Origin: Escherichia phage Ec_Makalu_001
Direction: 5' to 3' (one strand)
DNA length: 64,000 bases
Sequence record: MN894885.1
Numbering within the stretch: the stretch's first letter is position 1; each line of letters begins with the position of its first letter. Under the pieces are notes generated by a model. That model was not told the DNA's origin and did no database searches. It saw nothing but the letters and a program-made list of their open reading frames with translations. Below, piece by piece: positions 21,129 through 59,499 of the stretch. Position numbers and translations under genes: made by a program.

Positions 21129-21192
21129 TTTGATTCTCCGTTTGTTTTCTTGATGGGAGTATCTTACTACTCCCTTTAATCATTGTCAACTA

Positions 21193-30758: not shown

Positions 30759-30828
30759 CTTGATACTCCTTAGTTGTTTTGGGATGGGAGTATCTTACTA
30801 CTCCCGTGATATGCTGTCAACTGCTTTT

Positions 30829-30978: not shown

Positions 30979-31045
30979 TTGATTCTCCTTAAAGTGTATT
31001 TCGTTTCGATGGGGGTATATTACTACCCCCGTTTCATGCTGTCAA

Positions 31046-31264: not shown

Positions 31265-31333
31265 TTTGATTCTCCTTTGTTTCGTTTCGATGGGAGTATC
31301 TTACAACTCCCAATATTCAGTGTCAACTGCTTT

Positions 31334-51396: not shown

Positions 51397-54339
51397 ATGG
51401 CAGATTTAAGCAGAATCCAATTTAAACGTACTAGCACTAAAGGCCGTCGACCTGATGCTGGTACGATGAATCCGGGGGAATTGGCAATCAACCTTGCGGA
51501 TCAATATCTTCTTACTAAAAATGATTCCGGCGCTATTATCAATTTAAGTTGTCCTCCGGTTTATGACCGTGATGTTACAATGGCGGGTAAGGTTAAAGGA
51601 AATAATTATATTTTAAGTAAAACCGCCAATTATCTGGAAGACCAGACAGCGAGAGATCTTAACTACTTTGGTGCTTTCCGTACCAATAGTCTAGATGGAC
51701 TCATGGATCTAACCCTTAACGTTCCTCACTCTTCCGGTAAAGCGCATGGTCGAGGATTTACTTTCCGTTATGGGACTGGCGGATCTCGTGTTGAAACCTA
51801 TGGTTTTGATGTTCAGGGACAAAAAGCATTTAGTTATAAAATGTATCATGAAGGGGATAAACCGACTCCCTCAGAATTGAACGTTTATAGCAAACAAGAA
51901 GTTGACCGTATGTTTGTTAAAACCGTTAAACTTGCTACAGTTCCTGTTGATATCGTTGACGGTTATTTTAAATTAGCAACTGCATTGATTCCGCAAAACG
52001 GTCGTAGTGTATTTTTCCGTATTCATGGTGGTAACGGATATAACGTTACTGCATACGATCAAGTTGATATTGTAGAAATTGTTATTCGCAGTGGAAATAA
52101 TCGTCCTAAAGGTGTTAACGTTATTGCATACCGCCGAAATACAAACAAAGCATTTGATGTTTTGGCTGTTAATACTTCTGGTGATAACTATGATATCTAC
52201 GTGAAATATCAGCGTTACACTGATAACGTTATTGTTGAATTTGGTAAAAGTGTTGATGTTGATCTGGTGGTTCATGACGTTCCAGACTTTGTTGTTGATC
52301 GTCCTGTTGGTGATAATGTTATTGGCGGTCGCGCGGTAACTCTTTTTAACACCGAAAACAAACGAGGTGTGTTGAGTTTTGACGATAACACACAAAATAG
52401 TTATGATATTGTTCACTTGAGTAATGATAAAGGTACTGGAAGGAAATATATTCGTAAATTCCGTAGTAACTATAATGAAATGATCTGGCATGAGACGGTT
52501 CAAGGTTCCAGTTATCGACTCGCCACGGGTAGTACAGATGCTCAGGAAATTATAACTATTGAATCTAGTAGCTCAATTGCTGGAACTCATAAAGGTAATA
52601 TTATTTCTGGTCGTATGCTGTTAAATGGCGGATCTAATGCCATTACACTACGCCGACCTGCTGGTCAGTCTAATCATATCGCTTTTCAGGATAACCGCAC
52701 CGGAGATATTACTCGTCAAGGATGGATCGGTTATGCAAACGCTGATACTAACGTTTTTGAATGGTATAGTGATGTAGGCGGTAGTTCTATTCGTCAACAT
52801 ATTGACGGCCAGATAGAACTTCAAACTGGCAATATGAAGCGAGTTTATACTAACGCTCAATTCATCTCAATGAATAGCGACGCCTACCGTATGCTCTATG
52901 GTAATTATGGTGCATTCTGGCGTAATGACGGCGTTAAAGTTTATCTTCTTTCTACTGCCGAAAATGATAAATTGGGCGGATGGAATACTTATCGTCCATT
53001 CATTTATGATTTAACTTCCGGTAACGTTCAATTAGGTGGTGATGGTAACGAAGATGCATTAACTTTAGAATGTGCTTCTCGTGCCGCTCGCTTTAGTAAT
53101 GACGTTTACATTAAGAAAGGGCTTTTGACTTTCGACGCTGGGCGCGCTGGGTCTCGCGATTATATTCGATTTAATCATTGGGGTGATAGCAATAATGCTC
53201 GTGATAACGTTTTGTACATAGAAGATAGTCAAGGCCGACATTTTAGCACAGAACGTGCGATGGGTACTGGTGCTCTTAAAGCATACTTCTTAGGCGATCT
53301 TGAAGTCGGTGGTAAGTTTACTTGGGGTAAAAATACAGCTACATCTAGCTTTAATATTCGTGCATGGGGTAGTGATTCTCGTAAGCAAGTATTAGAATGC
53401 GCGGATGAAAGTGGTTGGCATTGGTATACCCAGCGACCGGGCGGTCCGGGTACTTCGGCAATTGAGTTTGCCATCAACGGTACTGTTAAGCCTCAAGCAA
53501 TTCATACTGGCGGCAATATTCTTTTGAACGGTGCCGATATTGAATTTCGTCGCACCGGTAATAAGCATTTGTGGTTTAGAGATCCAGACGGTTTAGAGTT
53601 AGGCTTGATGTACTGCGATGATGCTGGTGCTATTCGCTTCCGTGGTCAGAAACAAGCCCAGACGTGGAAATTTGCAGATAAAATGATCCAGTTGGAATCT
53701 GGTACTGTATCTGGTGGCGGTAATGGCCTGATTCGTGGTGAAGTTGCTGGCGGTAGTTGGGCTAGCTGGCGTGACCGTCCTGCTGGTCTTATGGTTGGGT
53801 GTCCTCAATCCGTTGACTCGGCACATAACGTATGGAAAGCGACGCATTGGGGTAAATATCATATCGCAGCAATGGGTGTACATGTTCCTAGTGGTACTAT
53901 TACCAATGCTTTAGCTCGCCTAAACGTTCATGACGCCAACTTTGACTTTAGCGCCTCCGGTGACCTGTCGGTAGGTCGTAATGGTTCGTTTAACGATGTT
54001 TATATTCGTTCTGATGCTCGCCTTAAAATCAACAAAGAAGAGTATAAAGAGAATGCCACCGATAAAGTTAATCGCTTGACGGTATACACCTATGACAAGG
54101 TTAAATCTTTAACCGACCGTACTGTCATTGCTCATGAAGTTGGTATTATTGCTCAGGAACTTGAAAAAGAATTGCCGGAAGCAGTAACAACTTCTAAGGT
54201 CGGCGATCCTGATAAGCCAGAAGAGATCTTAACAATTTCTAACTCTGCTGTCAACGCTCTTTTAATTAAGGCGTTTCAGGAAATGAGCGAAGAATTGAAA
54301 GCCGTTAAAGCTGAACTAGCGGAACTTAAAAAGAATTAA
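51397..54339 (+). CDS. 37: long tail fibre distal subunit gp37 with C-terminal intramolecular chaperone-like domain
   Basis: 980 aa; position after 36; C-terminal ~120 aa (SDARLKINKEEY...VGIIAQELEKELPEAV...coiled-coil) resembles the self-cleaving chaperone domain of endosialidase/T5 pb1-type fibres. Confidence 0.7.
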   Translation: MADLSRIQFKRTSTKGRRPDAGTMNPGELAINLADQYLLTKNDSGAIINLSCPPVYDRDVTMAGKVKGNNYILSKTANYLEDQTARDLNYFGAFRTNSLDGLMDLTLNVPHSSGKAHGRGFTFRYGTGGSRVETYGFDVQGQKAFSYKMYHEGDKPTPSELNVYSKQEVDRMFVKTVKLATVPVDIVDGYFKLATALIPQNGRSVFFRIHGGNGYNVTAYDQVDIVEIVIRSGNNRPKGVNVIAYRRNTNKAFDVLAVNTSGDNYDIYVKYQRYTDNVIVEFGKSVDVDLVVHDVPDFVVDRPVGDNVIGGRAVTLFNTENKRGVLSFDDNTQNSYDIVHLSNDKGTGRKYIRKFRSNYNEMIWHETVQGSSYRLATGSTDAQEIITIESSSSIAGTHKGNIISGRMLLNGGSNAITLRRPAGQSNHIAFQDNRTGDITRQGWIGYANADTNVFEWYSDVGGSSIRQHIDGQIELQTGNMKRVYTNAQFISMNSDAYRMLYGNYGAFWRNDGVKVYLLSTAENDKLGGWNTYRPFIYDLTSGNVQLGGDGNEDALTLECASRAARFSNDVYIKKGLLTFDAGRAGSRDYIRFNHWGDSNNARDNVLYIEDSQGRHFSTERAMGTGALKAYFLGDLEVGGKFTWGKNTATSSFNIRAWGSDSRKQVLECADESGWHWYTQRPGGPGTSAIEFAINGTVKPQAIHTGGNILLNGADIEFRRTGNKHLWFRDPDGLELGLMYCDDAGAIRFRGQKQAQTWKFADKMIQLESGTVSGGGNGLIRGEVAGGSWASWRDRPAGLMVGCPQSVDSAHNVWKATHWGKYHIAAMGVHVPSGTITNALARLNVHDANFDFSASGDLSVGRNGSFNDVYIRSDARLKINKEEYKENATDKVNRLTVYTYDKVKSLTDRTVIAHEVGIIAQELEKELPEAVTTSKVGDPDKPEEILTISNSAVNALLIKAFQEMSEELKAVKAELAELKKN

Positions 54340-55313: not shown

Positions 55314-55347
55314 AAGGGGAAGCCTTTCGGCCTCCCCTTCTTTTTTA
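55314..55347. terminator. terminator hairpin after holin t (possibly bidirectional)
   Basis: GGGGAAGCC-TTTC-GGCCTCCCC followed by T-run; convergent genes on both sides. Confidence 0.55.
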
Positions 55348-55593
55348 TTGGCGCATAGAATCCCCTGAATCACATTTTGACGCTGTATGATGAAAACAGG
55401 TAGCGTACCAGTCATCGGCTTGTTTGTCTTCGTCAGAAAACGCGTAATTTCGTTGTATGCCGTTTTCTACTTTGACCAGTGCAATAGCTGTTTCTGGAAG
55501 ATCGATCAATCGGACAAAATCACCATCTTCCCACTCTACACGAGCAATATCATAGCCCATCTCAAAGTATACAATCGCTTGTTCTAGTTTCAT
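55345..55593 (-). CDS. hypothetical protein (82 aa)
   Basis: ORF. Confidence 0.35.
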   Translation of the reverse strand: MKLEQAIVYFEMGYDIARVEWEDGDFVRLIDLPETAIALVKVENGIQRNYAFSDEDKQADDWYATCFHHTASKCDSGDSMRQ

Positions 55594-57150: not shown

Positions 57151-57909
57151 TTACTTGCAAACGTATTGATCTACATCAATTGCGCCACCGAATGTAGGAT
57201 GACGTTTTTCAAATCGAATCGTTCCGTCGTTTGGTTCGAAAACGGAGTATTCATATAGATCTTTCTTGCCAACATTCTTATAAAACCCGCCTTTAGTCAT
57301 AACGGTTTCTTGTACGTTTGCTTTGTGTACATTGTATTCATCAATGTACACAAAATCAACCATCTTCCCATTTTTAATAGTTACTTTAAGATCCCCTGGC
57401 TGGTTTCCATATTTTGCATACAGTGGAGATTCTTTAATTTTGGTGGAAATTCCATCTTTCATACTCCACTCATAACGAACGGTGCATTGATAGGTAAAAG
57501 TTTCGACCTTCGGTTCTTCCACCACTTTTTCTTCCTGTTTCGGTTGTTCTTCTTCAATCTTCGCAGAAGTCTCTGAATCGCTTTCTGACGCGGTTTCTTC
57601 TTTAGGTAATACATTCATTAAGTTTTGGATTTGAGCGTTATATACAGCCTCCAGTGGCTGAATCTGCCCGATATTGATCATTGTATCACGAACAGTTTTA
57701 TTCCAGTTGCGTTGCTCTTGTTTCAGAGACGGATCAATCTTAACAGCCTTAACATATACTTCATGAAGTTTAGAATCAAGTGCGGAGATTGACTCGTTAG
57801 CACAAATAAACTTCTCTGATTTGGTAGTAGCCTTAGTGCAATCAAAGGACGCAGCATTAGCACCGATGGCAGTAGCAGAAAGAAAGATAGCAGCGATAAT
57901 GTTTTTCAT
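57151..57909 (-). CDS. secreted protein with N-terminal DUF1311 / LprI-like (lysozyme-inhibitor-like) domain
   Basis: 252 aa; signal peptide MKNIIAAIFLSATAIGANA; pattern C..A....E.FIC....L..LD..L..VY ... EQRNW; promoter-like motif upstream. Confidence 0.45.
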   Translation of the reverse strand: MKNIIAAIFLSATAIGANAASFDCTKATTKSEKFICANESISALDSKLHEVYVKAVKIDPSLKQEQRNWNKTVRDTMINIGQIQPLEAVYNAQIQNLMNVLPKEETASESDSETSAKIEEEQPKQEEKVVEEPKVETFTYQCTVRYEWSMKDGISTKIKESPLYAKYGNQPGDLKVTIKNGKMVDFVYIDEYNVHKANVQETVMTKGGFYKNVGKKDLYEYSVFEPNDGTIRFEKRHPTFGGAIDVDQYVCK

Positions 57910-57979
57910 AATATATTCCTCAATGTCTTGTCTTGATGGGAGTATCTTACTACTCCCTTAATCCGGTGTCAACTACTTT

Positions 57980-58417: not shown

Positions 58418-58482
58418 GTGATTCTCCTTTCGTTTGGTATGGGAGTATCTTACTACTCCCTTTTCTTTACGTCAACTGGTTT

Positions 58483-58788: not shown

Positions 58789-58989
58789 CTAGTTTTTATT
58801 ATTTTCGTGAAAATTTTTCGTCGCCTCATGTGCTTTTCGCTGGGCTTCTTGTTGTGCTTGCTGGCGTGCTGCCTCTTGTGAAGCCATAACGGAAGCATTT
58901 GCAGCAGTTACAGCCGCTACCATCGCTGCGGTATTAGCATTTACAGTACATGCACTAGCCAGCAAAGCAATTGCAATCATTTTCTTCAT
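58789..58989 (-). CDS. small secreted protein (66 aa) with signal peptide
   Basis: MKKMIAIALLASACTVNA...; Q/A-rich mature part. Confidence 0.4.
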   Translation of the reverse strand: MKKMIAIALLASACTVNANTAAMVAAVTAANASVMASQEAARQQAQQEAQRKAHEATKNFHENNKN

Positions 58990-59433: not shown

Positions 59434-59499
59434 CTTTGATTCTCCTTTTGTTTGGTGTGGGAGTATTTTACTACTCCCTTGTTCTGGTGTCAATAGACT

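Follow-up and report, generated by a model that had tools for sequence, protein, structure and literature searches.

A constant DUF1311/LprI module and an exchangeable, predicted beta-barrel cassette in an exported protein of RB49-type phages

Analysis of a 64,000-nucleotide stretch of the genome of Escherichia phage Ec_Makalu_001 (MN894885.1; hereafter, the window), a Krischvirus and RB49-type relative of T4, revealed that a gene labeled a 'hypothetical protein' in all of the listed phage records encodes a protein built from one constant and one interchangeable part. The open reading frame (ORF), which lies exactly where the initial annotation had placed it (57151..57909, minus strand; 252 amino acids [aa]), corresponds to RB49ORF260c. 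Its product is strongly predicted to comprise three parts, namely, a helical DUF1311 module of ~85 aa, a disordered acidic tether of ~30 aa, and an eight-stranded beta-barrel of ~118 aa. Our comparisons provide strong evidence that the barrel moves as a self-contained cassette, by recombination within the linker and shortly ahead of the stop codon, both among krischviruses and between krischviruses and a lambdoid Escherichia coli prophage. The near invariance of the N-terminal module (N-module), the ancient barrel cassettes with their sharp breakpoints, and the link to a moron of a prophage in hicB are new here, and the protein itself pairs a divergent DUF1311 domain with an MliC-like barrel that is a sequence orphan, the whole being polymorphic and carried by phages. 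With respect to function, we tentatively propose a soluble periplasmic binder and inhibitor of incoming peptidoglycan hydrolases, conferring exclusion or protection from lysis from without, as well as immunity in lysogens, with the barrel cassette setting specificity; we regard this as quite possible, if somewhat short of probable.

The ORF260c-type gene was found in 56 krischvirus records. Its presence in all of these, together with a ratio of nonsynonymous to synonymous substitution rates (dN/dS) of 0.03-0.08 inside one cassette class, indicates that the gene is real. In an alignment of 17 homologs used to assess residue conservation, aa 1 to ~130 were almost invariant, while aa ~135-252 retained only C142, G153, and C251 in all sequences. 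Every pair compared over the N-module displayed a synonymous rate (dS) of 0.13-0.26 with a dN/dS of ~0.1. Over the barrel, synonymous differences between classes were saturated (proportion of synonymous differences, pS, 0.71-0.85), and dN/dS within a class (window versus RB49) was 0.03. This combination of saturation between classes and constraint within them led us to reject recent positive selection as the source of the C-terminal divergence; the cassettes are ancient alleles recombined onto a homogenized N-module rather than the outcome of recent runaway selection. Comparison of krischviruses by blastn located the breakpoints, with 92-96% DNA identity up to gene nucleotide 402 (codon 134), no identity over the barrel, and a return of homology ~15 nucleotides ahead of the stop codon that continued into the downstream gene. 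The variable cassette thus covers aa 135-252 (57154..57507, minus strand), its non-homologous DNA spanning ~57169-57507. With homology restored ahead of the stop codon, the gene downstream does not change along with the cassette, and the idea of a toxin-immunity pair was rejected on this ground. The junctions lie inside the coding sequence, and the barrel is swapped without the promoter-early stem-loops (PeSLs), which were described in RB49 and phi1 and are known in RB49-type phages as a mobile regulatory cassette (PMC2839356).

At least six cassette classes, falling into two superclasses, were distinguished. Among the 56 krischviruses, class Ia, to which the window belongs, accounted for 44, class Ib for 11 (Phi1, GEC-3S, E26, and others), and class Ic for 1, and superclass II was encountered in metagenomic contigs that resemble krischviruses and share their synteny. 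Superclasses I and II were alike only in the first strand, and homology between them was rejected (HHalign probability of 2.8%). Purifying selection within classes, ancient divergence between them, and the spread of cassettes across lytic phages and prophages form the pattern expected of a recognition module facing diverse antagonists.

The link to temperate phages was evident at the DNA level. From 6 nucleotides 5' of the ATG to codon ~125, the N-module exhibited 95-96% DNA identity to an E. coli chromosomal gene, and the homology between krischviruses and the prophage ended at gene nucleotides 371-381. Of 5,426 complete E. coli genomes, 26 contained the chromosomal copy, which bears the annotation 'lysozyme inhibitor LprI family protein'. 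All copies examined were the last, att-proximal gene of a lambdoid prophage residing in the 3' end of hicB. Equipped with a promoter-like site of its own and flanked by hairpins resembling terminators, the gene has the layout of a moron. Such an autonomous att-proximal unit is a typical place for exclusion and conversion genes. Strains differed in the cassette occupying this prophage slot, with both class I subtypes and superclass II represented. hicB is annotated as truncated at the prophage site, and an IS4/IS421 insertion was noted near some copies of the LprI-family gene. On one E. coli chromosome (L004), hicAB was not called and ~80 nucleotides 3' of the gene were 83% identical to the krischvirus downstream region, a similarity that hints at transfer from phage to prophage.

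The wider family coincides with PHROG 4675 and includes Marfa gp026, ev099 gp35, SSU5_101, LAh10 gp102, and AS-sw gp223. These proteins share with the window protein the A↓ASFDC end of the signal peptide (the arrow marking the cleavage site), a DUF1311 domain with one cysteine pair, a charged linker, and a C-terminal domain of ~100 aa with exactly two cysteines, whereas the identity of their N-modules to that of the window is only 37-55%.

The initial annotation had described a cleavable signal peptide, and the N-terminus indeed has the features of a textbook substrate of signal peptidase I (SPI), ANA↓ASFDC. Hydropathy and AXA analysis assigned a Sec/SPI signal peptide to aa 1-19 (MKNIIAAIFLSATAIGANA, then A; 57853..57909, minus strand), in which MK is followed by the hydrophobic core IIAAIFLSATAIG and by ANA↓A at residues 17-20. 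The cleavage region, GANA↓ASFDC, contained no lipobox, that is, no cysteine at position +1. The run A19-A20-S21-F22-D23-C24 was invariant even in Klebsiella and Aeromonas phage homologs of only 37-55% identity. Sec-dependent export and cleavage after Ala19 are thus strongly predicted from sequence features, and the mature product would be a soluble periplasmic protein, not a lipoprotein.

The constant N-module (aa 20-104; 57598..57852, minus strand) was delineated by Pfam, by AlphaFold2 (AF2), and by dN/dS. It scored 26.5 bits against PF07007 (LprI/DUF1311), above the gathering cut-off of 22 (E = 8.9e-6), and orthologs and distant homologs likewise exceeded the threshold. The earlier assignment to DUF1311 is therefore sustained by a curated cut-off, though the match is partial, aa 24-76 aligning with positions 1-71 of a 106-position profile whose last third is unmatched. 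In the AF2 full-length model, four helices covered aa 30-98 with a predicted local distance difference test score (pLDDT) of ~76-88, which together with the signal peptide features agrees with the secreted, small, all-helical domain of this family. DUF1311 proteins are defined by four conserved cysteines (PMC7933661) forming two disulfides; the window domain holds only C24 and C36, the family's first pair, and appears to be a divergent member with one disulfide. The DUF1311 observation is correct, yet it already existed as an annotation, because a 2006 table (PMC1524935) gave DUF1311 for this ORF at a weaker E = 0.2 and a public viral structure library labels the RB49 ortholog an 'LprI-like N-terminal domain-containing protein'. 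Beyond the entry in that table, we found nothing on the ORF in the literature. An alignment-based search with the N-module recovered mainly stand-alone secreted DUF1311 proteins, most of them 100-190 aa long, and no MliC fusions. The module is followed by an acidic linker rich in Glu, Lys, Pro, and Gln (aa 105-134; 57508..57597, minus strand), considered disordered on the basis of pLDDT (<50 for aa 105-131 in the AF2 model), a net charge of -7, and a length that differs between homologs. Its 3' end is the upstream recombination junction.

When aa 133-252 were modeled alone with homologs, eight strands and a short helix were predicted with a pLDDT of 91 and a predicted template modeling score of 0.84, and an independent BFVD model of the RB49 ortholog superposed on this barrel with a TM score of 0.93. 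The model has the flattened, eight-stranded antiparallel barrel of the MliC/PliC inhibitors (PF09864), and its tightest structural matches in the PDB were inhibitors of the MliC/PliC type. C142 in strand one and C251 in the last strand, both invariant across all variant classes, are placed like the cysteines of the end-to-end disulfide of MliC/PliC proteins and, by position, are candidates for such a bond. A Foldseek search of the full-length model against the PDB gave nothing below E = 0.01, NCBIfam yielded nothing informative for the barrel, and PADLOC returned no significant match. An exhaustive phmmer search of 1.84 billion representative proteins detected relatives of the barrel only in its own gene family, matches to giant repeat proteins having been dismissed as compositional. 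Mapping of the variability onto the model gave no clean pattern, and confinement to one end of the barrel was discarded. The barrel is thus unannotated and a sequence orphan, predicted to be MliC-like in fold and not a member of the MliC family by sequence.

How these two domains should be read depends on what their relatives do. PF07007 carries the label 'lysozyme inhibitor' without experimental evidence for inhibition, and in Mycobacterium tuberculosis LprI, which combines DUF1311 with MliC, the MliC domain is reported to be experimentally sufficient for lysozyme resistance (PMC7933661). As a more general caution, the database name 'lysozyme inhibitor LprI family protein' takes its meaning from the wrong domain of the protein that founded the family. 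The step from a DUF1311 match to lysozyme inhibition, which the initial annotation had taken, is weak on its own. What that annotation did not discuss, the MliC/PliC-like fold predicted for the C-terminal domain, favors its lysozyme-inhibitor reading, and the sequence signals that would be expected of MliC do not. DUF1311 proteins have also been connected with antagonism of wall-degrading toxins, as the DUF1311 protein Etsi4 of enterohemorrhagic E. coli (EHEC) counteracts the toxicity that Etse4, an effector of a type VI secretion system (T6SS), has in the periplasm (PMC12981562) and secreted LprI-domain genes of Pantoea lie directly 3' of lysozyme-like T6SS effectors (PMC9796082). By analogy, DUF1311 may plausibly act as an antagonist of cell wall enzymes. 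Like Etsi4 and the orphan immunity proteins of Pantoea, which are reported or predicted to antagonize periplasm-acting cell wall effectors, the window protein combines a signal peptide with DUF1311. Unlike them, it has an extra C-terminal domain, and whereas their genes stand beside effector genes, the window gene is phage-borne with no adjacent effector and a downstream gene that does not co-vary.

The architecture of the window protein mirrors that of LprI, because the tightest PDB matches of its barrel are MliC/PliC-type inhibitors; both proteins are exported, and in both an N-terminal DUF1311 domain precedes a small eight-stranded barrel, in our case a modeled one. The differences are considerable, as LprI is a lipoprotein with a bona fide MliC domain (PF09864), whereas the window protein has an SPI site without lipobox, only one of the two DUF1311 cysteine pairs, and a polymorphic, cassette-swapped barrel lacking the MliC sequence signal and the SGxxY motif. 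Classical MliC/PliC proteins are flattened eight-stranded barrels with a disulfide near the domain ends (Cys76-Cys154 in Brucella PhiA) and a lysozyme-binding SGxxY loop that is required (PMC8334348). Compared with members such as PhiA and Neisseria ACP, the window barrel is fused to DUF1311 and has neither detectable homology nor SGxxY, and it may, like PhiA, not be a classical active-site-plugging inhibitor.

According to the reading we propose, the ORF260c protein would act stoichiometrically in the periplasm, binding and inhibiting enzymes that arrive from outside the cell and cleave peptidoglycan. Its targets would most likely be the tail lysozymes of secondary or competing phages, so that superinfecting phages would be excluded and the cell protected from 'lysis from without'; other possible targets would be muramidase effectors of T6SSs or bacteriocins. 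Recognition of one enemy enzyme or another would depend on the barrel cassette, and the constant DUF1311 module would provide a second, invariant binding activity or a scaffold. The phage's own lysis may be compatible with such an activity. The putative RB49 endolysin, ORF102c (AY343333, 54719-55108), matched a D-alanyl-D-alanine carboxypeptidase family weakly (E = 0.0014) and gave no match to T4 e-type lysozyme; if this endolysin is a peptidase, a muramidase inhibitor would leave lysis unobstructed. A more elaborate version, in which the constant DUF1311 scaffold and interchangeable MliC-like cassettes constitute a 'plug-and-play' immunity, each cassette directed against a different incoming wall-degrading enzyme (phage tail lysozymes or T6SS and bacteriocin muramidases), traded between virulent T4-type and temperate E. 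coli phages, and replacing Spackle functionally in krischviruses, strikes us as doubtful, although worth stating.

Several observations weigh against inhibition of incoming hydrolases. Barrel residues 136-252 matched no Pfam family, MliC included, at E ≤ 10, and a search of PDB sequences returned nothing with a single-sequence query and nothing at E ≤ 10 with a profile query. SGxxY was absent from the window protein, and no conserved equivalent was present across classes. The closest MliC-like match, PhiA, neither bound nor inhibited SagA or hen egg-white lysozyme in vitro (PMC8334348), and ScwA, a soluble periplasmic protein consisting of DUF1311 only, had no lysozyme phenotype (PMC7933661). 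In the wider family, the C-terminal domains of Marfa, ev099, SSU5, LAh10, and AS-sw showed no detectable similarity to the barrel. The gp5 lysozyme domain was 98-100% identical in all krischviruses, whatever the cassette, and Klebsiella phage Marfa carries an annotated spackle gene in addition to its family member. Finally, the literature yielded no experimental datum for the ORF260c protein or its orthologs.

The last two genomic points bear directly on the resemblance to T4 Spackle (gp61.3), an inhibitor of the tail lysozyme gp5 (PMC7677548), with which the initial annotation had compared the protein. The likeness is one of function only, both being early, periplasmic, cysteine-containing proteins of T4-type phages with a signal peptide. 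Mature Spackle consists of one helical bundle of 75 aa and is well conserved and gp5-selective, whereas the window protein is three times larger, has two domains, is not a sequence homolog, and shows a polymorphism unrelated to gp5. With Spackle of T4 and of Marfa as queries, tblastn and hmmsearch found nothing below E = 0.05 in the window and in RB49 outside the baseplate genes at 71-78 kb, and no match fell on the gene at 57151-57909. Spackle is not annotated between RB49 genes 61 and 41, where Dc1 and Dc2 (AY343333, 11585-12628) occupy the place of T4 61.2, sp, and 61.4. A Spackle-like role thus draws some support from the failure to detect Spackle in RB49 and the window, and it loses support from a barrel that varies independently of the phage's own gp5 and from the coexistence of both genes in Marfa. 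Since barrel cassettes differ greatly while gp5 stays 98-100% identical, the protein is not a simple Spackle-like inhibitor co-adapted to its own tail lysozyme, and co-adaptation to the gp5 of the genus was rejected because cassette class does not co-vary with it. If the barrel binds lysozyme at all, it is not tracking the genus's own gp5; of all parts of the protein, only the invariant N-module is conserved in parallel with gp5.

Other functions would account for some of these observations. The protein might modulate the host's own wall enzymes by binding, for example, a lytic transglycosylase or another peptidoglycan enzyme of E. coli itself, and thereby adjust the integrity of the wall or the time of lysis in infected or lysogenic cells. 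The precedent is again ScwA, which raises the levels of MltD and causes lysis on overproduction (PMC7933661), and both the near invariance of the N-module, which fits a conserved host target, and the position of holin t ~1.8 kb away are in keeping with this idea. However, a conserved host target leaves the unrelated C-terminal cassettes unexplained, and ScwA differs in architecture, with a C-terminal DUF1311 domain and four cysteines (PMC7933661), so that we consider such modulation unlikely. Another reading is neutralization of a variable, envelope-located defense protein of the host or of a prophage, with cassettes tracking the diversity of defenses. The polymorphism is of the arms-race type, and the hyperplastic early cluster also contains a Tad2-like anti-Thoeris gene (55345-55593); yet temperate prophages carry the same gene as a moron, which fits a defensive role better than an offensive one, and PADLOC recorded nothing significant, leaving counter-defense with a slim chance.

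Masking of an envelope component appears similarly improbable and would resemble T5 Llp or lambdoid Cor, the barrel binding the periplasmic face of an outer membrane receptor or another envelope part, blocking adsorption or DNA entry by related phages, and guarding progeny from being inactivated by cell debris. In contrast to the exclusion lipoproteins of the Llp/Cor type, the window protein has no lipobox or lipid anchor and hence no attachment to the membrane. Moreover, a test for linkage between cassette class and the tip of the gp37 fiber was negative, as tips of class Ia phages were 59-94% and those of class Ib phages 60-87% identical to that of the window, and Ec_Makalu_002 combines a barrel identical to the window's with a tip only 60% identical. 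As a separate observation on gene 37, the tip encoded by its C-terminal region (53137-54336, plus strand) was 94.5% identical to that of Whisky, 92% to that of ECD7, and 60% to that of Ec_Makalu_002, the closest overall relative, indicating fiber-tip mosaicism within the genus. A further candidate function is the binding of a small molecule or lipid by a barrel of the calycin, YceI, or Cap15-like kind; the protein would then hold or transport a ligand in the periplasm, and DUF1311 would be its partner domain. Matches to these folds had higher root mean square deviations (3.4-5 Å) than those to MliC/PliC, wholesale replacement of a cassette with retention of only core residues is unusual for a ligand pocket, and the Cap15 barrel acts in the cytoplasm within a membrane effector; we assign this idea little probability.

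Topoisomerase gene 52 and holin t border the early hyperplastic region, transcribed leftward, in which the gene lies; its 1.9-kb neighborhood is 99% identical to Ec_Makalu_002 and 91-92% identical to RB49. The initial annotation had called the protein early, and a promoter scan and motif search bear this out at the sequence level by locating a PeSL at 57938..57972 (minus strand), with a -35 element TTGACA (57972-57967, minus strand) separated by N17 from a -10 element TAAGAT (57949-57944, minus strand) that sits in the loop of a GGGAGTA/TACTCCC hairpin. A Shine-Dalgarno sequence, GAGGA (57917..57921, minus strand), was read off the sequence 7 nucleotides 5' of the ATG. Transcription from its own early sigma-70 promoter, a PeSL, is thus strongly predicted. 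The motif TTGACA-N9-GGGAGTA-N6-TACTCCC occurred in 7 minus-strand copies in the window (21155-21189, 30786-30820, 31011-31045, 31292-31326, 57938-57972, 58441-58475, and 59459-59493) versus 0 expected by chance.

Neighboring genes were of interest in their own right. Beside holin t, an 82-aa ORF (55345-55593, minus strand) matched Pfam PF11195 'Tad2-like' (Thoeris anti-defense 2-like) with 27.9 bits against a cut-off of 25 (E = 3.4e-6), and this gene was also present in krischvirus-like metagenomic contigs. Another ORF of 66 aa (58789-58989, minus strand), starting MKKMIAIALLASAC, is a candidate small secreted protein or lipoprotein, with a hydrophobic N-terminus, a possible LLASAC lipobox, and an Ala/Gln-rich tail; it gave no Pfam match. 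In two krischvirus-like metagenomic contigs (L021 and L023), a gene for a gp38-type adhesin (PF05268) adjoins holin t, the position near which RB49 and the window carry gene 37 instead, RB49 gene 38 being located elsewhere.

In T-even phages, Spackle and Imm of T4 are the only cases of superinfection exclusion with an understood mechanism. Phages of the RB49 type, much used in collections for phage therapy, have no recognizable Spackle, and ORF260c offers a concrete candidate in this group, for which a natural allelic series (classes Ia, Ib, and Ic and superclass II) has already been sequenced. Should the proposed immunity with exchangeable cassettes hold true, the gene would represent a polymorphic exclusion or immunity locus analogous to polymorphic toxin-immunity systems. 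If the cassettes set the specificity of exclusion, they would help to predict which phages are able to co-infect or follow one another in cocktails, and they would also exemplify gene flow that links lytic with temperate phages at the level of single domains.
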